64,000 nt of DNA from Nitrosopumilus sp. (GTDB taxonomy: Archaea > Thermoproteota > Nitrososphaeria > Nitrososphaerales > Nitrosopumilaceae): assembly GCA_965223425.1 (NCBI GenBank), contig OZ245003.1, positions 608,001 to 672,000 of the forward strand, read 5' to 3'. Made by a program: the position numbers and the translations under genes. This document shows, in pieces, positions 20,282 to 48,565 of the stretch (the stretch's first letter is position 1; every line of letters begins with the position of its first letter). The notes beneath the pieces were generated by a model that made no database searches, was not told the DNA's origin, and was given only the letters and a program-made list of their open reading frames with translations.

Positions 20282-21463
20282 TTGTACACACCAAAGATCC
20301 GTACCGTTCGTAAACAACAGAAACTACATTCCGTCCAACCATCAATAATATCCCTGTTTACTTGCGGAATGGGTTTGGATCTAGGATTCGAAAAGGCAGG
20401 ATTTTCTACAAAGTATGCCAATGATATTACAAAATCTGCCTGTGACACCATAAGGGAGAACAGACCCAACATATCGTGTGATGAGGGAGACATTACAGAG
20501 ATATCATCATCCGAGATACTCCGAAAATCATCTATAAAACAAGAAGTAGATGTGATCATAGGAGGCCCACCATGCCAGTCTTTCTCTACTGCAGGCAAAA
20601 GAAAAGGATTTAATGACAAGCGTGGCTTTGCTCTCTTACAGTATATACGAATAATAAACGACATAAAGCCCAAACTCTTTGTCTTTGAGAATGTTCCAGG
20701 TCTTGTATCTGCAGCCAAAAAACATGTCTCGTTTTATGATAGAATGTCTAGCTCCGGCAAAAAGATCACCAATGACCAAAAATACGGTTCACTTTTTGAA
20801 GAAATCATCAATGATTTTAGAAAAATAAATGGATACCAAATAAAATGGAAGATGTTAAACGCTGCAGATTATGGAGTACCACAAAAGCGCAAAAGACTCG
20901 TACTTATGGGATCCAGAGTATTGAACCCCAATGTGATTTTTGATGAGATTGAAAAAGCAGCAAAATTTGCCGACCCAAAAGAAGCCAAAACAATTGGCAA
21001 GAAACCGTGGAGAACCCTCCGAGATGCATTGGACGGATTAGAGGATCATGAAAAAGAGCACATCAATTTTCCAAAATGGGGTCAGTATCTCAAATATGTG
21101 CCAGCTGGAGGTTGCTGGATTGATCTACCTAAGCATCTTAAAGAGAAAGCGATGGGAGGAGCTGCTGACTCGTCTGACCCAAAGAAGAAGGGCAAACAAG
21201 GAGGACGTCGTGGATTTTATCGCAGACTGTCATGGGATGCACCAGCTCCTACACTCATTACATCTCCTGCACAGCTTGGAAGCTGTATCTGCCATCCAGA
21301 TGAACTGCGTCCGCTAACAGTCAAAGAATATGCCAGACTACAGGGATTTCCAGACACATGGAATTTTGTGGGATCAACTAATCAGAAATACAGGATGATA
21401 GGAGAGGCAGTACCAGTAGAGCTTGCAAGGATCATAGCTTCTGCGATAAAGAAATTCCTCTAG
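20282..21463 (+). CDS. C5-cytosine DNA methyltransferase (intact)
   Basis: SLFTCGMG, GGPPCQSFS, FENVPG, YGVPQKRKR, RLQGFP; TRD GGRRGFYRRLSWD resembles GGWCC/GGNCC-type enzymes. Confidence 0.95.
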   Translation: MYTPKIRTVRKQQKLHSVQPSIISLFTCGMGLDLGFEKAGFSTKYANDITKSACDTIRENRPNISCDEGDITEISSSEILRKSSIKQEVDVIIGGPPCQSFSTAGKRKGFNDKRGFALLQYIRIINDIKPKLFVFENVPGLVSAAKKHVSFYDRMSSSGKKITNDQKYGSLFEEIINDFRKINGYQIKWKMLNAADYGVPQKRKRLVLMGSRVLNPNVIFDEIEKAAKFADPKEAKTIGKKPWRTLRDALDGLEDHEKEHINFPKWGQYLKYVPAGGCWIDLPKHLKEKAMGGAADSSDPKKKGKQGGRRGFYRRLSWDAPAPTLITSPAQLGSCICHPDELRPLTVKEYARLQGFPDTWNFVGSTNQKYRMIGEAVPVELARIIASAIKKFL

Positions 21464-22734: not shown

Positions 22735-23931
22735 TTGGTAAGTTTTATCATGCAACTATTTCTAGTGTTTTTTTCATTGATTCTTTTTCCAGCATTTGGA
22801 GAGCCAATCCCTGATTATGATAATCCCTATTCTCCAATTTTCACAGATAATCCAAAATATTCTTGGACTGACAAAATAAAAATGACTATTATATCTCCAA
22901 GTTGGAACAGTGACAGACATCTAATTGATTCAATCGGAGATACTGAAGACCATCCAATAAAAATTTCAACAAGGGATCATTCTCTAGAACCCTACCGGTT
23001 TACTGAAACAGACGTTAATTCAGGAATTTTTACTGCTGAGATTATTCTTACAGGTTTTTCACATGATGCTAATGGTGATGGCAATATTGATACCACTCCT
23101 AGAACAACTGGTAGTGGTCCGACAAGTGGATTTTTAGAAGTTGATAGAGATTCAGCTGTTACCATCTCTTTTGAATTTGCAGATGGGGTAGTATTGATTG
23201 AATCCGTTCCTGTAAGTTGGAATCTTGGTACGATCCAATTTTTAAATGAGATTTTTTTTACAGACGAGTCTGCAATGATTCGTGTAGTTGATTTTGATAT
23301 GAATCTAAATCCTGAGGCATTAGATACAGTCCAAATCAAACTTGTTTCAGATTCTGATGTTGCAGGAATTAAAGTTGATGCTATAGAAACATCTGAAAGC
23401 TCTGGATCATTTATTGCCACAATTTCTTTCTCCCAAACTTTGCCTTCTAGTGGAAATAGACTTTATGCTCTGCTTGGGGATGAAATAACTGCACAATATG
23501 ATGACCACACATTACCGAAACCATATTCTACATCAGATAATTTGACAATTAAAAATTTTGCAAAAGTTGATTCATCTATTCGTCCAATTGACAGATTAGA
23601 AAATCTTCCTGTTGTTTTCTCTGATGGTCTTGGTAACGAACTACAATCTTTTTCCACAAATAATCAAATGCAAATAGTTGGAACTATAGTAAATGAACAT
23701 GATTTTAAACAGAAATTTGTTTACCTCTTCCAAGTAAAAAATTCTACAAACTCTGTTGAATCAATTTCATGGGTTCAAGGCGAACTATCCCCAGACCAAA
23801 GTCTAGACATTTCGCAATCTTGGCTTCCTGAAAACTCTGGAACATATACAGTTGAAACTTTTGTTTGGAGTTCTTTTACTGATCCAACAGCATTGGCACG
23901 TTTAACATCTACTTCAATTACTGTTGATTAA
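22735..23931 (+). CDS. Secreted/surface hypothetical protein
   Basis: Signal peptide, ET..(N/S)SG.F repeats, C-terminal ETFVW Ig-like domain. Confidence 0.75.
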   Translation: MVSFIMQLFLVFFSLILFPAFGEPIPDYDNPYSPIFTDNPKYSWTDKIKMTIISPSWNSDRHLIDSIGDTEDHPIKISTRDHSLEPYRFTETDVNSGIFTAEIILTGFSHDANGDGNIDTTPRTTGSGPTSGFLEVDRDSAVTISFEFADGVVLIESVPVSWNLGTIQFLNEIFFTDESAMIRVVDFDMNLNPEALDTVQIKLVSDSDVAGIKVDAIETSESSGSFIATISFSQTLPSSGNRLYALLGDEITAQYDDHTLPKPYSTSDNLTIKNFAKVDSSIRPIDRLENLPVVFSDGLGNELQSFSTNNQMQIVGTIVNEHDFKQKFVYLFQVKNSTNSVESISWVQGELSPDQSLDISQSWLPENSGTYTVETFVWSSFTDPTALARLTSTSITVD

Positions 23932-33369: not shown

Positions 33370-33470
33370 GGTTCTGTGAAGTTGTCGTGTGTTGGGTATG
33401 AAATATGAGTTTTCTCTGAATTGAAAATTTTCTCTTAACACATGTTAACACACGATAACTTCACAGAGCC
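33370..33470. mobile_element. MITE with IS6-like ends
   Basis: 24-bp TIR GGYTCTGTGAAGTTRTCGTGTGTT (22/24); interior similar to 39928-39963; no TSD seen. Confidence 0.85.
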
Positions 33471-39903: not shown

Positions 39904-40234
39904 GGGTTCTGTTGGGTTATAGTGATATGGGTATGAAATACGGATCTTCTCTGGATTGAAAATCATATCTAAACCAAATCCTTACTTAATGATGCATTCT
40001 GGATGATAGCCTTCCATTTGTTAGTCCCTTCAACAGTTATCCTTGAGGCCTGTGCTGGTGTCCTGCCCTTCAATGCACCGTACCAAACTCTGCCTTTTTC
40101 AGTGATTCCAGAGTTGCCTTGATGTGTTTGCAGTCGCCCTTGAAACCACAGTTGCAGGCAAGACCATTACCTGTAGAACTGACCTCATGATCACCAGCTT
40201 GATATTTGCCCAGATAGAGCTGTTTTGTTTTCAT
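39904..40234 (-). mobile_element. IS6-like element end plus internally deleted SWIM-domain transposase (39969-40234)
   Basis: TIR GGGTTCTGTTGGGTTAT; N-terminal CNC.....CKHI joined out of frame to C-terminal GALKGRTPAQASRITVEGTNKWKAIIQNAS. Confidence 0.7.
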
Positions 40235-40374
40235 GCGTACATTACCTCGAAAATTAATATGTTAGAAAATGAATCAAGAAGTGAGGGCTCAGATGTACTC
40301 ACTGTCATCACATTGATGTCAGATTGCACGCGGCTCATCATTGCCCTCATTTTTGTTTGATTCATATAATAGAT

Positions 40375-41110: not shown

Positions 41111-42194
41111 GGGGGTTGTTGCCAAATTCACCCCCATGATCTAATTTTGTGATTTTTCACGCATATTGATCAGGGAGGATGTGAGTTCTCTAATGAGTGA
41201 TCATAAGAGACGTGATCAGTGCTGGAAGTACTATCACGATGCCCACACCCGAGAACCGGATTTTCTCACGTCCCACATAGTTTCTTTGATTGTGAAAAAT
41301 CCGTGTCCTGTCCGGGACAGACAGTCCGGTCCTGGACGCAACCGGGTTCACAGCAGGAGCAAGCTGGCATGCATCTGCATACTCACGGTGTGTCTCAACC
41401 ATACATACCGGGACATGGAGAACCTTGTATCCAAGCTTAAACTGCCGTGGGACGAACCCGTACCTGATCACACTACTGTCTCCAAGTTCATGCAAAAGAT
41501 TCCTGCTGCGTGGCTTGAGGACACGGTTGCCGTCACGGCAGCATCGTGCCTTGCAGGATTTGACGTCTCTGATCTCGCGCCGGCATCAGACAGACGGCAG
41601 CGGCGTTGCCACTGACAGGCATGAAAGAGTGCAAAAAAAGGCCAAAAACAGGCACAACAGGAGGCAAGGCGTCAAAGGAAGTATCTGAAATGGCACGCGG
41701 CCTCGGTACTGGGCCTGCAGGTCATACTCTCCTGCCGCATCACATCCAACAGGATGGCAGACACTGCAGTTTTGCCTCGCTGCTAAGGAAGATCAAAAAG
41801 ACAGGCATTGCCTTTGCAGGCAGGTTCAACGCAGACAGGGGGGGGGGGTATGATTCTGATAGGAACTGCAGGCCTGTCTTTGGTGCCGGCATGACCCCGA
41901 ACACAAAGCAGGGGGGCAATGCCGTGAACAGAACAAAAAAGTTCAGGAAAAAGGCCGCAGGGCTGTTTGACGGGGAGGTCTACAAAAAACGAGACTGACA
42001 GAGGGAATATTTGGAGCAGAGGAGACAGAGGGCCACCGGCTGCTGTGCAGGTTCAGAAAGACATCCACAAGAAGGCGGTTTGGACTGTGCAAGACAATAG
42101 GATGGAACCTTGAGGTGTTAAACCGTTTGGAGTGCGCCGCAAGGCGAAATATTCAGGCGGTGGCAGCTTAGATGTGAATTTGGCAACAACCCCC
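41111..42194 (+). mobile_element. IS5-family element, frameshifted
   Basis: 21-bp perfect TIR GGGGGTTGTTGCCAAATTCAC; VPDHTT, ADRGGGYDS motifs; no TSD. Confidence 0.9.
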
Positions 42195-42851
42195 TTCCCG
42201 GTCTTGGCAAGCGGCTCGGCTGCTGCCTGATCCGGCAGATCCCGCAGTACCGGCGAGTCGCCGGTTCTGCCGTCTGTGACTACGGCAGCCAGCATCGTGC
42301 CGGTGTCCGCATCTGCCGGCAGGTGCATCTTGACATATCCCCTGCGCACCACCGCCTTCCACTTGTCGCGTATCCGTTCTCCGCGGTTCCACTGTCTGAG
42401 TCCGGTGGCATCGGCCACCGGGGTTACGTGCCGGGATGCATCATGAACGTATATGGCGTTGCCGTGAATGCTAATGTCAAATTTCTCCATTCTTCTGCAC
42501 AGCGTGGTATGGTGCGGCGAGTCGCGTCCCTCAACATCATACCTGCCATCCCGGACTGCTGCCTGAATGGAGCGCCGAGGGCGGTTCTCAGTGCGGCTGT
42601 CATGTGATCATGGTGTCTGCATACTGGAACTGGGCCCCCTCCTCCTTGCCGCAGTTGGCCTGCCTTGCCTCGCAGCTCCAGTCGGGGTTGTACTGCACCA
42701 CCAGCTCTGCACCCCGCCGGACGTACCTTGCATTGTCGGTCAACACTTTGAGCATGCTGTCATGATCTAAAGCTTTTTCGGTCAGAAACATGTGTGTTTG
42801 TTGGTCAGTTTAAACTGCGTGGTAGATTTTAGGCGTGTTATGCAACAAGCT
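42195..42851 (-). mobile_element. Truncated IS5-family (IS903/ISH1-like) element
   Basis: DATGL...RRGYVKMH..D motif; GCTTGTTGCATAA end near 42850. Confidence 0.75.
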
Positions 42852-42852
42852 A

Positions 42853-43054
42853 GTGGAGCCGACTAACAACGCGTCGGAGAGGGCGCTGCGCTATCTGGCG
42901 GTGTTCCGGAAGATAAGCGGGCAGACCAAGGGCGGCAGCAAGTCCATGAAGCGCCTTGGAGATTTTGTAAGCTGCGTCCTGACGTGGCAGAATCACGGCA
43001 AGAGCGTGGTGCAAGAGGTTTCCCGACTGATATAAGGGGCAGGTGGAACCATAC
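42853..43054 (+). mobile_element. IS66 3'-end remnant
   Basis: Near-identical to about 32779-32980 including right end. Confidence 0.92.
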
Positions 43055-43100
43055 AGCCATTCAAACCAAAGACTATAATAGTTATTTTGACCTATATTAT

Positions 43101-43158
43101 GTGATTCCGCTTTGAAAGATAGGCTATGGGCGTCTGTAAGGACAGCCCAAGGAATCAC
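43101..43158 (+). ncRNA. Candidate DUF3800-associated structured RNA (3-way junction)
   Basis: GUGAUUCC/GGAAUCAC closing stem, UGGGC-GUC/GAC-A-GCCCA hairpin, GAAA-loop hairpin; TATA-like CTATAATA at 43073-43080. Confidence 0.65.
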
Positions 43159-43161
43159 CGA

Positions 43162-43923
43162 TTATAATACAACAAAACCTCGCTTGTTCCAGTCGCCATA
43201 TGGCAAATAATATCTGTCCTTGATCTCCTGCCACCGCGACTCTTTTCTGTTGCTTGTTACCATCTTGATATGTGGTGCATATACAAAAAAATCCGAAATC
43301 TGTAATGTTTTTTCCTTAGTTGGCTCGCCGTTGATTATACTGCCTTTAATTCTGTCCAGATTGGAAAAATATGGAAATGCGGTAATACTTCGTAATTTTT
43401 GCATCTCTCTGTACATTTTTCGCTGTAATCGTGTGGTCAGTTTTTCATAGATTACTATCCCATCATCATGTACTTCTTCAAGAAAATATTGGAAACGCTC
43501 CATACAAATCAGCAGTGTATAGGCCCGCATATCGATTGGCTGAGTATATTTGGCTATATGGCTGGGCTTGTGAATTGAGGCAGATACAAGTTTGCAATCA
43601 ATGGAATTAATCGAGTCAAATATTCGGCTTGCAATATTTTTACGTATGTCATCGGGCAGCTGATCATAGGGATGTTTTTTTGCCCTTGCGCTGTTGTAGT
43701 GTAATTTAAAGTCAGAAGGCAGTTTTATGCCTCGGTATGTAAAGCAATCCTTGATAATAGAATCAACTACCTGCTCGAATTTTGGTACGTTTGCCTCCTT
43801 TACTATCACTCCACCTGTGGTAAACCAGTTTGAATCAAGATTTTTTTCCTTGTTCTCTGATATGAGATTTTCAACTCCTGATTCATCAATGAACATGTAA
43901 TGCAAACAAGATATCTGTGGCAT
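43162..43923 (-). CDS. DUF3800 domain protein (RNase H-like)
   Basis: MFIDESG, ERFQYFL, IVIYE, LQISDFF. Confidence 0.9.
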   Translation of the reverse strand: MPQISCLHYMFIDESGVENLISENKEKNLDSNWFTTGGVIVKEANVPKFEQVVDSIIKDCFTYRGIKLPSDFKLHYNSARAKKHPYDQLPDDIRKNIASRIFDSINSIDCKLVSASIHKPSHIAKYTQPIDMRAYTLLICMERFQYFLEEVHDDGIVIYEKLTTRLQRKMYREMQKLRSITAFPYFSNLDRIKGSIINGEPTKEKTLQISDFFVYAPHIKMVTSNRKESRWQEIKDRYYLPYGDWNKRGFVVL

Positions 43924-44051
43924 CTGTGGTATTAAATTGTGTGTCTACAGTATTTAGAAAAAAAGGTAGGAATATTGTTAGCGTTCCAATCGCTTTCTGC
44001 CGTCATGTGAAAAAGGGATCAGAACCAACTGTGGGCTGTGACACCTTCCGG

Positions 44052-45290
44052 TCAGTAGTTGGGATTGTACATTTTGGATAGCCCAAGCTGATCATTTTGA
44101 GAGCAAAACACGATCAACCAGATCCAAATACAAGGCATGCTCACCCACCTTGACTTGCACAGAAAAGATGGGCAAACACACCAGCAGAACCAAGACATCA
44201 GAGGGCTTAAAATCTTCCAGTCCGCACTGCGGCGCCTGAACCTTGCCTTTGGCACAAGACACAACACGCTGTACGGCCTCGGGGATGCAGCTCACATGCT
44301 TCTTCTGGTCATGGCCAGCTCCAACGGATACGCCAACGGCGCGCGAGATCTCGGCTCTCCCGGCATCCGCATGCCGTCGGGCAGCTGGCTGCTCAAAAAG
44401 CTGCGCATCACAAGGCCGGACAAGATGAACCGCTTTTGTGACCAGATGATACACGATACGGCCAATGCGGCATGCCGCGACATGAGACGACGCGGCGGCA
44501 ACAGTGAAACGACGGCAGCTGCAATAGACAAGCACAGGATTCCGCACCATGACAAAAACCCCGACCTCAGACGCCTCATACAGTCAAAATACGAGTCAGG
44601 AACGTACAGGTTTGAGTCATACATGACATCCAAGATAGTGCAGGGCGGCAAGGAGGCCAACCTGTGCTTCAGTCCGGTTACCCGCGGCATCTTCAACGGC
44701 GAGTTCGTGCGTAAAACCGTCGAAAAATGCTCCAAGCTTCGCCTTGGAATCGGCCTCTGCCTTCTTGACAGGGAGTTTTACGCAACAGACGTGATGCAGG
44801 CCGTCAGATCACTTCACAGGCATTTTATCATGCCGGCAAAAAAGAATGCCGGCATCAAGCGCGCCATTGTACAGCACGCCCAAGGAAGGCGCGGCGATGT
44901 TTCACAGTACACCATGCAGTCAGGCTCCGAGAAGTTCACGTTCAACCTGGTTCTGATCAGGGATGATGCCGGGAAGAAAGACGGCACCAACATGTTTGAT
45001 AGGTACCGCGCATTTGCAACGTCGCTGCCATGCGAGAATGAAGGGGACGTTATCAGATACATCCCAGAACAGTACAAAAGACGGTGGGGGATGGAGGCAG
45101 GCTACAGGTCTGCAAAGAGCATACGCCCGCACACCTCCAGCAGGAACCCCTCCGTACGGATGCTTTTGTTTGTCTTGTCACTGGTGCTCAACAACATCTG
45201 GATAGGCCTGCGTCGCACGGCGGGCAGGCAAAGATATCATGTGACACTTGCCGGTATTTTAAACAGGATGATCCACGCGTTTGTAACATG
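44052..45290 (+). mobile_element. ISH3-type element, transposase 44137-45297, right end lost
   Basis: Same TIR as and high identity to 17709-19017; interrupted by next IS. Confidence 0.9.
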
Positions 45291-46663
45291 TCAGTAGTTC
45301 CCAGATGTAGATTTGTGCCCAGATGTATGCTTGTGCCCAGATGCCGGTGCGTTACCGCATATTGCAATGCAAAGATCTAGATTAGGTTACGGTGTGCAAG
45401 ACGTCATGAGCAATCAAACACACGACGATCCGATCGCACACCAGTACGACATAGCATCAAACCAGTTTAAAATCTTGCGCTCGTCGTTTCAAAAGCTTGG
45501 CATGCCAATGTCTGAGAGGCACAACGCCGTATACGGATGCGGCGACATACTGGACGTGCCAATCAGGGCGTCTGAGAGAAACACGTTTGTAGAATCCCTC
45601 GTACGGCGCAACAGGCTCCAAGACACGGGCGCACGTACGCCTGATGCAGACCTGGTCATGTCTGCAGTCCGTGGCGTCGAACCGGCAGACGTGCAGGACT
45701 GGTGCGCAAAGACATTGGCACGCACGGTGCGGCACGCCGGCCGTGCAGGAATGCTACAGGACATCGACGCCATTGCAATAGGCGTTACGGACATACCATA
45801 CCATGGGGAGCAGCTGCAGGAGCATACAGGAAAGTCGCGTCCAAGGGCAGGAACATCCACGTTTCTCTCGTATGTCGCAGTGCACGGAGTCGGCAGGGAC
45901 TCCTCGCAGGTTGTCCCAGAGTCGAAGCTGCTGCCGGCAAAGGAGAAACTGGCCGATTTTATCGCCAAAACACGCACGAAAATCCTCAGAGGAGGCGCAC
46001 ATTCAAAGACTGTGTTCCTGTACGACCGCGCCTTTTACAGCGCTGACTGCATGACAGAGGCAGGAAAGGGCGGGTGCCGCTACATCATGCCTGTCATCAT
46101 GAACTCCAAGATCAAGAGGATAGTCAAGCTGTACGAGGACGGAAAGGCAAACCAGGTATCGCAGTAGTCAATGACCAACAAGGACGGCGCAACTGTGACC
46201 TACAACCTTGTAATTGTCAAAAGAGACAGGAAGAAGAAAAAGAAGAAAGAGGAGGAGGAGGAGGAAGAGAAGGAGCAATACATTGCATTTGCAACAAACA
46301 TTCCCATCAGGAGTGCCAGAGCCATGACAGACATCATACCGGAGCAGTACCGCAAGAGATGGGGCATCGAGACGGGGTTTCGCGTCATAAAGAAAATCAT
46401 GGGCAGGACATGCAGCAACTCCCTGGCTGTGAGGCTGCTGATGTTTTACCTGCCGCTGCTTCTGTACAACCTGTGGAGGATTGCCAGGTTCTGCCTTGAT
46501 GCAGGAAAGATGTATGGAGGAGTGTCTTCTGCGGGAAAAAAACTTACCATGGCGTTGTTTATCGTGTACATTACAGGCAGGAACGAGCTGTTTGTCAATG
46601 ATCGAGGTAAGTAGAGCCGGTGCCAGTTGCGGTTGCGGTAAATCTACATCTGGGAACTACTGA
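45291..46663 (+). mobile_element. Second ISH3-type element, internal TAG at 46165-46167
   Basis: TIR TCAGTAGTTCCCAGATGTAGATTT; YDRAFYS and YRKRWGIETGFR; poly-K/poly-E tract; 18-bp tandem units at left end. Confidence 0.9.
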
Positions 46664-46808
46664 CATGGCAGTAACCCTTCAACTCTCAGGCCCAACAGCA
46701 ATGATACATCACAGGATATAGAAAAGATTTCGTATAACGTCTGTGAAGTTATCGGGGGTTACATGTCAATTCCTAAAATGTATAAACCTCTAAACCGTAA
46801 GATGTTCG

Positions 46809-48002
46809 TTGAAAGCGATAAAGTCAATATCACAGAAATATGCGCCGAACTCTGACCTAATGGATATGATGGTCACATTCACAAAGATGGTTGATCGTTG
46901 CATCAAGATAGGGTTAAAAGAAGACACACACAATATGAAAAGGTTATCATGTCTATGCTATCACGAATTGAGAGACTATGACATTTTATCGTCATACAAA
47001 CTAAATGCAATATCAAGGGCTGCTGGCATACTGGCAAACAGAAAACAGTCAATAAAACGTGGCATCAAGGTTAGATACCCAAAGATAACAAAGCCGTTTA
47101 TCACTAATTGTTACGGTATAAAACACAACGGTGCACTACTCACAATCCCATACAAGAGTAGAAATCCAATCAACGTCTTGTTAAACCCACACACCCAAAA
47201 AATCCTGTCGAATTCTGCCTTGACAGTACGCTCGTTTTCATTGACTGCCCTCAACATCAGTCTTTGTGTTTCCAAGGAAACTGAAAAGATAGAATGTACA
47301 AAGACAGTAGGAATCGATAGAAATTTGAGGAATGTTACATGTGGCAATGAGGGACAGGTAACATTTTACAAGACAAACAAACTGCTATCCATAAAGGAGA
47401 ACACCATGCACGCCAGAGCCGGATTCCGCAGAAATGATCGCAGAAAGAAAGGCCGATTCTGGAAGATAAAACAGCGAAGAATGGCCAATAGAACAAAACA
47501 ATACATACACAGAATATCAAAAGATATTGTGGATAATGCCGCCAAAGAAAAGGCTGTAATCGTTCTAGAAAACCTAAAAGGAATTAGAAAACTCTACAAA
47601 AAAGGAAATGGTCAAGGCAACAAGTATAGGCGCAGATTAAACGGATGGCAATTCTACGAGTTACAACGCCAAATAGAATACAAAGCCCAATGGGTCGGGC
47701 TCCCACCAGTCGAATATGTAGACCCAAAAAACACGAGCAAGATGTGTCCAAGATGCGGAAAGAAACTCCAAGAGGACATGCAACACAACAGTCGTAAAAT
47801 GTCGTGTAATAATTGCGGTTTGTTTATGGACAGGGATATTATCGCTGCCATGAACATATCACGCAAACTGTCCCCTAGGTTTAGGGATAGTAGAGATGAC
47901 ATAGGTGAAGCGCAGTCCGGTGTTTTTGAACCGGCGATGATGGAACCCTGCATACCAGTAATCCAGATAGTCGATATGTCAAAGTCGAGTTATAGGGGTT
48001 AG
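46809..48002 (+). CDS. tnpB: RNA-guided endonuclease TnpB
   Basis: RuvC-I VGIDRN, RuvC-II VLENL, Zn finger CPRC/CNNC, RuvC-III DRDIIAAMNI. Confidence 0.95.
   Translation: MKAIKSISQKYAPNSDLMDMMVTFTKMVDRCIKIGLKEDTHNMKRLSCLCYHELRDYDILSSYKLNAISRAAGILANRKQSIKRGIKVRYPKITKPFITNCYGIKHNGALLTIPYKSRNPINVLLNPHTQKILSNSALTVRSFSLTALNISLCVSKETEKIECTKTVGIDRNLRNVTCGNEGQVTFYKTNKLLSIKENTMHARAGFRRNDRRKKGRFWKIKQRRMANRTKQYIHRISKDIVDNAAKEKAVIVLENLKGIRKLYKKGNGQGNKYRRRLNGWQFYELQRQIEYKAQWVGLPPVEYVDPKNTSKMCPRCGKKLQEDMQHNSRKMSCNNCGLFMDRDIIAAMNISRKLSPRFRDSRDDIGEAQSGVFEPAMMEPCIPVIQIVDMSKSSYRG
47866..48000 (+). ncRNA. Predicted omegaRNA scaffold plus guide overlapping tnpB 3' end
   Basis: Stems ACUGUCCC/GGGAUAGU, UGACAUA/UAUGUCA, GCAG/CUGC, CCGGU/ACCGG; ends in TCAA at 47982; boundaries approximate. 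Confidence 0.6.
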
Positions 48003-48055
48003 CTCCCGATAACTTTACAGAACCCATTAAATACACTACACAATGCAATCTATTC

Positions 48056-48565
48056 ATGTTTGGAAAAAAGCCTACTTTGAAAGAAGGGGTTCATGTTTTT
48101 TCTACTAAAAAAAATGGAGATTATAATGACTTTATTTTTGGAGTAGTTACAGGTATAGATGATCGAAAAGTGGGAATCAACGGCATAATTGTCAATCCTG
48201 TTGGTCTCAAAAACAAGATAGAACAAGGAAAAACAGGAGAACGCTCATTAGAAATCCTTCAACATCCAACACCTGATAATGTTGTTTTAGCCCTAGTCTA
48301 TAGAATTGAGCATGAAAATTTTGCTGATGTAATTGACCTTGATGAAGACAAATGCGATCTTCTTCCCCCTCAAGTATATACAATGCTGGATGGCTGGATT
48401 CGAGAATCCCTGTCAGAATTTCTTAATACTGTATTATCACTGCCCCCCGGTTCAGAAAGAGATGAGGCAAAACGTGTTTTAAAACACCGAATGGAGACTT
48501 TGGTAGATAAAAACCTGAGAAGAACGCTTTATTCTGTTTGTCGAAGTCTTAAAGTCTTGAATTGA
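48056..48565 (+). CDS. Hypothetical protein (host-like)
   Basis: 169-aa ATG ORF with TATA-like element about 25-30 nt upstream. Confidence 0.75.
   Translation: MFGKKPTLKEGVHVFSTKKNGDYNDFIFGVVTGIDDRKVGINGIIVNPVGLKNKIEQGKTGERSLEILQHPTPDNVVLALVYRIEHENFADVIDLDEDKCDLLPPQVYTMLDGWIRESLSEFLNTVLSLPPGSERDEAKRVLKHRMETLVDKNLRRTLYSVCRSLKVLN

Follow-up and report, generated by a model that had tools for sequence, protein, structure and literature searches.

In classical IS200/IS605 transposons, the target-adjacent motif (TAM) abuts the left end of the element, the guide of the nuclease TnpB is the DNA that follows the right end, and the empty site consists of TAM plus target. TnpB also occurs in transposons with inverted terminal repeats: the main text of Altae-Tran et al. 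(2023, PNAS; PMC10691335) describes six DDE-associated branches of this kind (DDE-1 to DDE-6), in which no more than 250 bp separate the 3' end of TnpB from the end of the transposon, and solo TnpBs that share these ends are held to be moved in trans. A 2026 review (PMC13565253) lists ISL2, IS630 and IS1031 for DDE-associated TnpB and holds that restorative homing pays only for transposons that excise. In Fanzor1, according to Yoon et al. (2023, NAR; PMC10711439), the terminal inverted repeat (TIR) and the target-site duplication (TSD) are predicted to be part of the scaffold of the guide RNA (reRNA), which extends ~15 nt beyond the TSD; the passage on TSDs in PMC10530073 concerns Helitron-associated Fanzors. 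Here we analysed a 64,000-nt stretch (the window, C1:608001-672000) of the source genome of the archaeon Nitrosopumilus sp. (2.64 Mb, 2 contigs, 99.99% complete). In the window lies a single, slightly damaged copy of a non-autonomous transposon of ~1.29 kb, whose sole cargo is tnpB with an overlapping omegaRNA-like scaffold. With 25-bp TIRs and 8-bp TSDs, this element differs from those of the IS200/IS605 family (IS1341 group), which are recognised by having neither.

A transposon with tnpB as its only cargo

The 397-aa open reading frame (ORF) of the element is a TnpB in which both the RuvC D-E-D triad and the zinc finger are present. It scored 130.1 bits against the NCBIfam profile guided_TnpB (NF040570, cut-off 100) and 76.5 bits against the Pfam profile Cas12f1-like_TNB (PF07282, cut-off 26.3), and a PDB search matched TnpB and Cas12f chains (best E 2.8e-13), among them the ISDra2 TnpB structures 8exa and 8h1j (E 1.5e-9). 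An earlier note on this DNA, made from the sequence alone, had described the triad as intact, and D170, E254 and the DRD at 341-343 were all found. In an alignment of nine sequences reaching down to 37% identity, D170, D341, R342, D343 and the four cysteines are invariant.

The source genome encodes about 13 copies of the unit, with perfect 25-bp TIRs and 8-bp TSDs. A BLAST search with the 1286-bp element returned 10 full-length matches (element positions 1 to 1285/1286), two matches from position 63 to the end, two interrupted copies and fragments; at the protein level, 11 of the 22 TnpB matches are full length and without stops. When aligned with their flanks, the sister copies start with GGTTCTGTGAAGTTATCGGGAGTTA and end with its exact reverse complement, and their similarity stops at the 25-bp TIRs. 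Perfect 8-bp TSDs flank seven of 14 elements in this genome, one has a 7/8 match, two have reciprocally swapped TSDs and four have none. The two copies with swapped TSDs (TAGAAACT and TTATGTTA), at C1:1325308-1326598 and C1:1451399-1452689, are in opposite orientation, which points to an inversion of the intervening ~126 kb through recombination between the two. The site of copy C1:2033639 is empty in five relatives (G003, G004, G012, G014 and G017), where the flanks abut with an 8-bp overlap: G004 reads ...catTTG, a single 8-bp copy GGTTGATT and ACC..., and the filled site in the source genome reads ...catTTG, GGTTTATT, the element, GGTTTATT and ACC.... The full-length copies, their TSDs and these empty sites bear out the proposal of the earlier note that nuclease and scaffold travel as one TIR-bounded, DDE-mobilised unit.

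Some copies have been altered. In C1:2292571-2294969 and C1:594234-596770, tnpB is interrupted by insertions of ~1.1 kb and ~1.27 kb. A 344-bp derivative (C1:1199933-1200276) retains both TIRs, the TSD AATTATCC and TTG upstream of it; it has lost most of tnpB and kept the omegaRNA-like 3' region, and is possibly a guide-RNA-only mini-element served by TnpB in trans. On the second contig (123 kb, GC content 46.9% vs 41.2%), three TnpB-like matches that are only distantly similar to the TnpB of the window (25-33% identity) cluster in the region C2:36379-47341. The scan for TIR cores also caught a tandem array at C1:2107253-2113579 (period ~222 bp, about 30 units), and a 12-nt GGTTCTGGTGTC repeat, probably coding repeats, occupies C1:679643-679811; both are unrelated to the transposon.

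No Y1 TnpA (PF01797) was matched in the source genome, as the earlier note had found for the locus; the same search matched 6 of 14 control genomes, and serine recombinases were not searched for. The TIRs start with a GG(T/C)TCTG-like sequence, which we take to be typical of the IS6 family (IS26, IS257). The profile PF13610 matched the source genome at eight places, four of them above the cut-off of 27 bits, including the transposases L001 (343 aa, 52.6 bits) and L002 (358 aa, 44.7 bits). The best match was the NCBIfam IS6 profile NF033587, covered end to end at 102.8-121.9 bits, below its cut-off of 125 (L001 121.9 and L002 111.1 bits, both covered in full). Both transposases lie within elements with GGTTCTGT... 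ends and 8-bp TSDs; in this genome the TIR of the tnpB element matches that of a transposase-bearing element over the outer 14-17 nt only. A second Nitrosopumilus genome (G031) encodes an intact 1970-bp IS6-like element (378-aa transposase, perfect TIRs, TSD CTATTGTG), the first 18 TIR nt of which are shared by three TnpB elements of that genome (L013, L032 and L037). A well-supported reading of these ends and duplications is that the whole tnpB unit is mobilised in trans by IS6-like DDE transposases.

A search for related loci gave 73, with about 32 full elements in G031, mostly with perfect 8-bp TSDs. The more than 30 copies in this genome fall into at least six TIR families, which have only GGTTCTGT...ACAGAACC in common. 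IS6-type termini are kept in relatives at 37-61% TnpB identity: in another Nitrosopumilus metagenome-assembled genome (MAG; L038), in Nitrososphaera/Nitrososphaerales (L043, L046, L047), in Bathyarchaeia (L044, L049, L050) and in a Thermoplasmatota MAG (L052). Their presence in such distant relatives makes the link between this TnpB clade and IS6-type ends an old one, not the product of a single nesting event. Among 80 metagenome loci, a TIR pair was detected in 34, of which 13 had an intact TSD (at most one mismatch; 12 unique sites) and 21 a TSD with more than one mismatch; the other 46 were on short contigs or had a left end that escaped detection. We found no IS6-type elements and no scaffold core in 400 kb of G002 (GC 52.7%), and a search for the MITE (miniature inverted-repeat transposable element) pattern in G031 found none.

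The motif beside the insertions and the source of the guide

A short motif, W-T-R (TTG, TTA, ATG or ATA), stands directly 5' of the left TSD. At 48 sites (13 in the source genome and 35 in other genomes), T-R was present in 44 and W-T-R in 41, the genome background being 0.129 and 0.078, respectively. Position -2 was T in 44 of these sites, position -1 was G in 28 and A in 17, and position -3 was T in 35 and A in 9. The boundaries of two loci in this count were mis-set by 1-3 nt; read by eye, they give TTA (L041) and GAT (L052). After the right TSD, no comparable pattern was found at the 48 sites. We then applied a single detector uniformly to 1.2 of the 2.21 Mb of G031 and to the source genome. 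All scaffold-bearing elements had the motif upstream (23/23 in G031, 9/9 in the source genome, 32/32 together), and few had it on the downstream side (4/23 and 1/9). The same scan found 10 IS6-type elements without a scaffold; T-R was on one side of five of them and on neither side of the other five, when about 2.4 were expected. It supersedes a set of hand-picked non-TnpB IS6-type ends, in which T-R was found in 9/42 among the matches listed. In metagenomes, all 12 unique sites with at most one mismatch in the TSD had W-T-R, and the tnpB-less derivative has it too. The site of the window copy is empty in G049 (86%) and G007 (83%), the two closest relatives that hold it empty, and reads ATA, AATTAAAT, ACACTAC, i.e., W-T-R followed by a 15/16 match to the right flank in the window; the more distant relative G009 has TAC there. 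The intact autonomous IS6-like element of G031 has the motif on neither side.

The position of the motif can be compared with that expected of a TAM. Given the 8-bp duplication, an empty site consists of a sequence X, the 8 bp and the right flank, and what follows the right end of the element is again the 8 bp and the right flank. A guide derived from the flank would therefore need X, immediately 5' of the left TSD, to be the TAM. Both the position and the strand of W-T-R are those required by this model. We favour, with moderate confidence, a reading in which the ordinary homing logic of TnpB would operate on an IS6-type transposon, with the TIR in the scaffold, the right TSD and flank as guide, and W-T-R as TAM. 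The omegaRNA would read through the right TIR, the inner part of which would form the last hairpin of the scaffold together with a degenerate internal TIR copy, and the guide would comprise the right TSD copy and about 8-12 nt of flank. The TAM would lie immediately 5' of the duplicated 8 bp, and the uninserted allele (TAM, TSD and flank) could be cleaved. The filled allele would be immune: its right TSD copy is preceded by ...ACC, and its left copy would match the guide for 8 nt before running into the TIR. Cleavage of the empty allele and recombinational repair would then copy the element in, which amounts to homing shifted by one TSD length. We infer from sequence comparison that the motif is a TAM, that transcription passes through the TIR, and that cleavage and homing take place. 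The earlier note had seen here a logic different from homing; the TAM-like W-T-R, which lies upstream of the left end at a distance of exactly one TSD, as a flank-derived guide predicts, speaks against this.

The omegaRNA-like region contains two stems, a conserved block and a terminal hairpin (Table 1). RNAalifold recovered stem 1 in a 22-sequence set that includes distant relatives, in which stem 2 is absent or misaligned. Across 16 distinct sequences, the two stems are 98.1% paired, with changes on both sides in 11 of 13 pairs; the observed values were reached in 0/500 shuffles, and slid controls were 24-52% paired. The block (GGTAATCC-N4-AGTCGATATGTCAAAG) is separated from the element end by 33-104 nt of family-specific sequence. 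The segment that follows it, GTC-R-AGT..., is a degenerate copy of each family's own TIR from about position 7, and minimum free energy folds place it in the terminal hairpin in about 10 of 16 representatives, leaving a 6-9-nt unpaired AGAACC tail. Cognate hairpin arms pair at 8.9/12 positions vs 7.4/12 for non-cognate arms, and none of 5000 permutations reached the cognate mean. A scan of 46600-48200 against Rfam gave nothing relevant (two chance matches, E 4.3 and 5.9). Assembled contigs of related copies, 85-99% alike, were found in two RNA libraries (sponge metagenome label; share 0.08), which indicates presence only. One of 291 nt covers 47849-48033 and extends 9 letters beyond the TIR, below the 31 needed for bridging; others belong to a different TIR family (their loose end matches the L033-type right end). 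From the sequence comparisons, a structured RNA that overlaps the 3' end of tnpB and runs into the TIR is well supported.

Several points weigh against a flank-derived guide with W-T-R as TAM. One-sided T-R in half of the scaffold-less IS6-type elements may betray a weak target preference intrinsic to the transposase. The distant Thermoplasmatota relative L052 has GAT instead of T-R, and T-R was found in only 13 of the 21 metagenome loci with poor TSDs, where the boundaries may be wrong. The RNA data are assembled contigs, which can show neither ends nor levels. The 33-104 nt between the core (...TCAAAG) and the element end are unusual for TnpB scaffolds, and the pairing of the hairpin is imperfect (6-11/12), with non-cognate arms also pairing fairly well. 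Finally, IS6-family elements are thought to move replicatively, without excision, which would give restorative homing no benefit, so that invasive homing must be assumed.

Alternative explanations of the motif attribute it to the insertion step. It could reflect an asymmetric preference for target sites built into the IS6-like transposase itself, unrelated to any TAM of TnpB, which would then be a passenger. The asymmetry could come from an extra internal TIR-like binding site at the right end, and this end does carry a third, internal TIR-like copy; the five of 10 scaffold-less elements with one-sided T-R, against about 2.4 expected, keep this explanation alive. We nevertheless regard it as unlikely: the motif accompanies 32/32 scaffold-bearing and at most 5/10 scaffold-less elements, it is missing on both sides of the autonomous element of G031, it is unchanged over at least six TIR families in which TnpB is the constant part, and its position is exactly that predicted by a guide made of TSD plus flank. 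Another option is that TnpB, through recognition of the TAM, helps to choose or license the insertion site of the IS6-like element in the manner of a CRISPR-associated transposon, independently of a guide or only partly guided. This would account for a motif that is almost universal and exactly placed in scaffold-bearing elements, more strongly than a filter acting after insertion might give, and weak or absent in scaffold-less ones. It is improbable in our view, since there is no evidence of physical coupling with a transposase that is encoded elsewhere, the 344-bp tnpB-less derivative obeys the same rule (although TnpB could be supplied in trans), and insertion inside a would-be protospacer has no precedent.

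Two further explanations concern the element itself. The earlier note had placed a fixed guide within the TIRs. Its positions are correct, as ...TATGTCAA ends at 47982 and AGTCGAGTTATAGGGGT occupies 47983-47999, and the idea is that the ~16-17 nt after the scaffold (AGTCGAGTTATAGGGG) are aimed at a constant target. These 16 nt do follow the most conserved block, are near-identical among the copies that we call A-type and exist in a version of their own in each TIR family. However, the segment is a degenerate copy of the family's TIR that pairs with the right TIR; it is conserved between copies and covaries with each family's TIR as the 5' arm of the hairpin, and all families have kept its first ~8 nt (GTC-R-AGT), which would not be expected of a free guide. 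The 16-mer had no match with up to two mismatches in the source genome outside the elements, and no exact match in viral contigs. A fixed guide would also leave the W-T-R-N8 geometry, which points to the right flank, unexplained, and we judge it slightly less probable than targeting assisted by TnpB. The least probable explanation is a one-off nesting, already named as an alternative in the earlier note, in which a tiny MITE received an IS1341-type element of the classical kind 3' of TTAC, the TIRs being incidental. The cleavage sites of IS608 are TTAC and TCAA, and the ends of A-type copies resemble them, reading ...GGAGTTAC followed by ATGTCAA on the left and ...ATGTCAA followed by AGTCG on the right. 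Yet the similarity of the sister copies continues past TCAA: TIRs and TSDs are retained throughout the copies of both genomes (about 13 in the source genome, more than 30 in the second), and B-type copies and other TIR families lack TTAC/ATGTCAA at the left end, which rules out a single event of this kind. The empty 68-bp MITE (left TIR joined to the right end) was not found among 85 TIR-core matches in the source genome, IS6-type termini accompany the TnpB clade in other phyla (down to about 37-46% identity), and the source genome has no Y1 TnpA. An ancient nesting is conceivable as the ultimate origin of the tnpB element.

Within the favoured reading, in which the guide derives from the flank, the near-universal adjacency to the TAM could stem from selection through homing, from transposase preference or from targeting assisted by TnpB. 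Under selection, only TAM-adjacent insertions would drive themselves into empty alleles or sister chromosomes; under preference, the transposase would have a target preference matched by TnpB, as with TnpA and TnpB in IS605. A more far-reaching proposal, which we consider doubtful, is that TnpB, via the TAM, decides the final location of a non-excising DDE transposon of the IS6 type. TnpB might recruit or license the transposase at TAM sites, the staggered cut starting right after the TAM, or it might act as a gene drive through RNA-guided copying of only TAM-adjacent insertions into empty alleles. If true, either version would be a natural partnership of TnpB and a DDE transposon with its own TAM-TSD-guide rule.

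The copy in the window and its surroundings

The ends of the window copy deviate from those of its sisters (Table 1). The earlier note had described 22-bp inverted repeats matching at 19/22 positions, and the left repeat TCTGTGAAGTTATCGGGGGTTA (46740-46761) does match the reverse complement of 48003-48024 at 19/22. The repeats are thus real, but their length was underestimated: the full TIR of the sister copies is 25 bp long and perfect, and the window copy has lost the first 3 nt on the left. The start CGTCTGTG instead of GGTTCTGTG is found only in this copy and in C1:783913. The left flank of the window copy (46663-46739) is part of another repeat, of which ~82 bp, running on into ...ACGTCTGT, are also present at C1:2062574-2062655 (97.6%) and beside the copy C1:783913 (94%). 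The window copy combines a body of the B family (95.7% identical to C1:2433612) with ends of the A family. Although its tnpB ORF and right end are intact, it has probably lost its mobility.

Similar ends occur elsewhere in the window, in line with the earlier note. The 15-mer TCTGTGAAGTTATCG of the left TIR is found exactly at 33453-33467 (minus strand), at the MITE end near 33470, and with one mismatch at 33373-33387 and 48007-48021; allowing up to three mismatches there are seven matches vs 2.16 expected, a number reached in 0/100 shuffles. The end near 39904 is of the same type and reads GGTTCTGTTGGGTTATAG at 39905.

Table 1. Features of the tnpB element and of related repeats, in window coordinates
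Feature	Position	Strand	Remarks
Left TIR	46740..46761	+	22/25 nt of the family consensus; IS6-type, starts GGTTCTGT...
tnpB ORF, intact	46809..48002	+	397 aa from TTG; first ATG at 46861; profile and PDB matches
RuvC-I aspartate D170 (VGIDRN)	47316..47318	+	invariant alignment column
RuvC-II glutamate E254 (IVLENL)	47568..47570	+	E kept in 13/13 alignable genomic copies
RuvC-III DRD, D341-R342-D343	47829..47837	+	preceded by CxxC...CxxC zinc finger (C313, C316, C333, C336)
omegaRNA-like stem 1, 8 bp, loop with AGGTT	47867..47891	+	RNAalifold, 22 sequences: compensatory changes in 7/8 pairs; helix 98.4% paired
omegaRNA-like stem 2, 5 bp, loop NYTTTTGA	47917..47934	+	5/5 pairs change on both sides; 97.5% paired; Nitrosopumilus lineage only
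Most conserved nucleotide block of the scaffold, GGTAATCC-N4-AGTCGAT...CAAAG	47957..47984	+	kept at 37-46% protein identity
Terminal hairpin (predicted)	47984..48018	+	5' arm, the "guide" of the earlier note (degenerate internal TIR copy); 3' arm, inner right TIR
Right TIR	48000..48024	-	last 6 nt AGAACC (48019-48024) predicted unpaired
Predicted guide template	48025..48040	+	right TSD copy CATTAAAT (48025-48032) and 8 nt of the flank that follows it; based on W-T-R-N8 geometry
Segment of an unrelated repeat, ~77 bp	46663..46739		has replaced the original left flank (putative TAM and left TSD) together with 3 nt at the outer edge of the left TIR
MITE, 101 bp, without tnpB	33370..33470		IS6-type termini like those of the tnpB element
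IS6-like element remnant	39905..40365		end GGTTCTGTTGGGTTATAG; 74-77% identical to the element with the L002 transposase

Directly upstream of the tnpB element, a nest of at least five other repeated elements occupies 41501-46667. It includes two ORFs of IS4/IS5-type transposases (DDE_Tnp_1), at 44137-45297 and at 45313-46614 (the latter split at 46167/46171). Both ORFs are many-copy in the genome, with 13-15 shared boundaries at 44053, 45291 and 46663. Further away, a C-5 cytosine DNA methyltransferase ORF (PF00145, 249 bits) lies at 20282-21463, and its neighbour, a 398-aa ORF at 22735-23931, had no Pfam match.

Comparison with known systems

TnpB in DDE elements with TIRs has already been published, and the link with IS6 and the TAM-TSD geometry were not found in print. 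Our literature searches found no paper joining TnpB with IS6 in titles or abstracts, none joining TnpB with Nitrosopumilus or its phylum, and none on a TAM offset by the TSD, the supplements of PMC10691335, which might list the clade, lying outside these searches. The fixed guide, which would have placed the element in a category of its own, is not borne out, and the element is left as a clear case, amenable to testing, of a TnpB fitted to a DDE transposon that makes TSDs. In its accepted role, TnpB restores an IS200/IS605 copy after excision by cutting the empty donor site; transposons that duplicate their target and are not known to excise have no obvious gain from this (PMC13565253). The source genome (about 13 copies), the second genome (more than 30) and the metagenomic relatives together form a large natural data set of intact TnpB modules in IS6-type elements, almost all beside a TAM-like motif at the offset predicted by a flank-derived guide. 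It allows direct tests of the ways in which RNA-guided nucleases adapt to DDE transposons, and of whether they bias insertion or inheritance, and it adds a compact archaeal TnpB of 397 aa whose scaffold is defined and whose TAM is predicted to be short (TTR/ATR).

The element resembles those of the IS1341 group, including that of ISDra2 TnpB, in its protein family and catalytic motifs, in the overlap between an omegaRNA-like scaffold and the 3' end of tnpB, and in the putative placement of the TAM to the left and the guide to the right. Classical IS200/IS605 elements, in contrast, have neither TIRs nor TSDs, depend on a Y1 or serine TnpA and have the TAM directly at the left end, whereas the archaeal element has 25-bp TIRs, 8-bp TSDs and a putative TAM offset by 8 bp, in a genome without Y1 TnpA. 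With the IS6 family, its MITEs and mobile insertion cassettes, it shares ends that start with GGTTCTG, 8-bp TSDs, putative trans-acting transposases that match PF13610 and, below its cut-off, NF033587, and MITEs with the same ends in the same genome. It departs from that family in its cargo, an RNA-guided nuclease module, and in the transposases, which are long proteins of 343-378 aa that include an N-terminal zinc-binding part and score just below the NCBIfam IS6 cut-off.

As in the branches DDE-1 to DDE-6 (PMC10691335), TnpB is encoded inside a transposon with TIRs, its 3' end is near the element end, and mobilisation in trans is likely; the main text of that study names only IS630 (DDE-6), and the parts of it and of the review PMC13565253 considered here mention neither IS6 nor a TAM-TSD geometry. 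The closest parallel for the RNA is Fanzor1 as presented in PMC10711439, where the TIR is also part of the guide-RNA scaffold and the RNA runs out into the flank, as would be the case for the archaeal element. In the eukaryotic Fanzor1, however, the TSD is short, fixed and absorbed into the scaffold and the TAM, whereas the archaeal TSD consists of 8 arbitrary bp and would have to make up the half of the guide next to the TAM, which would itself lie upstream of the left end by the length of one TSD.

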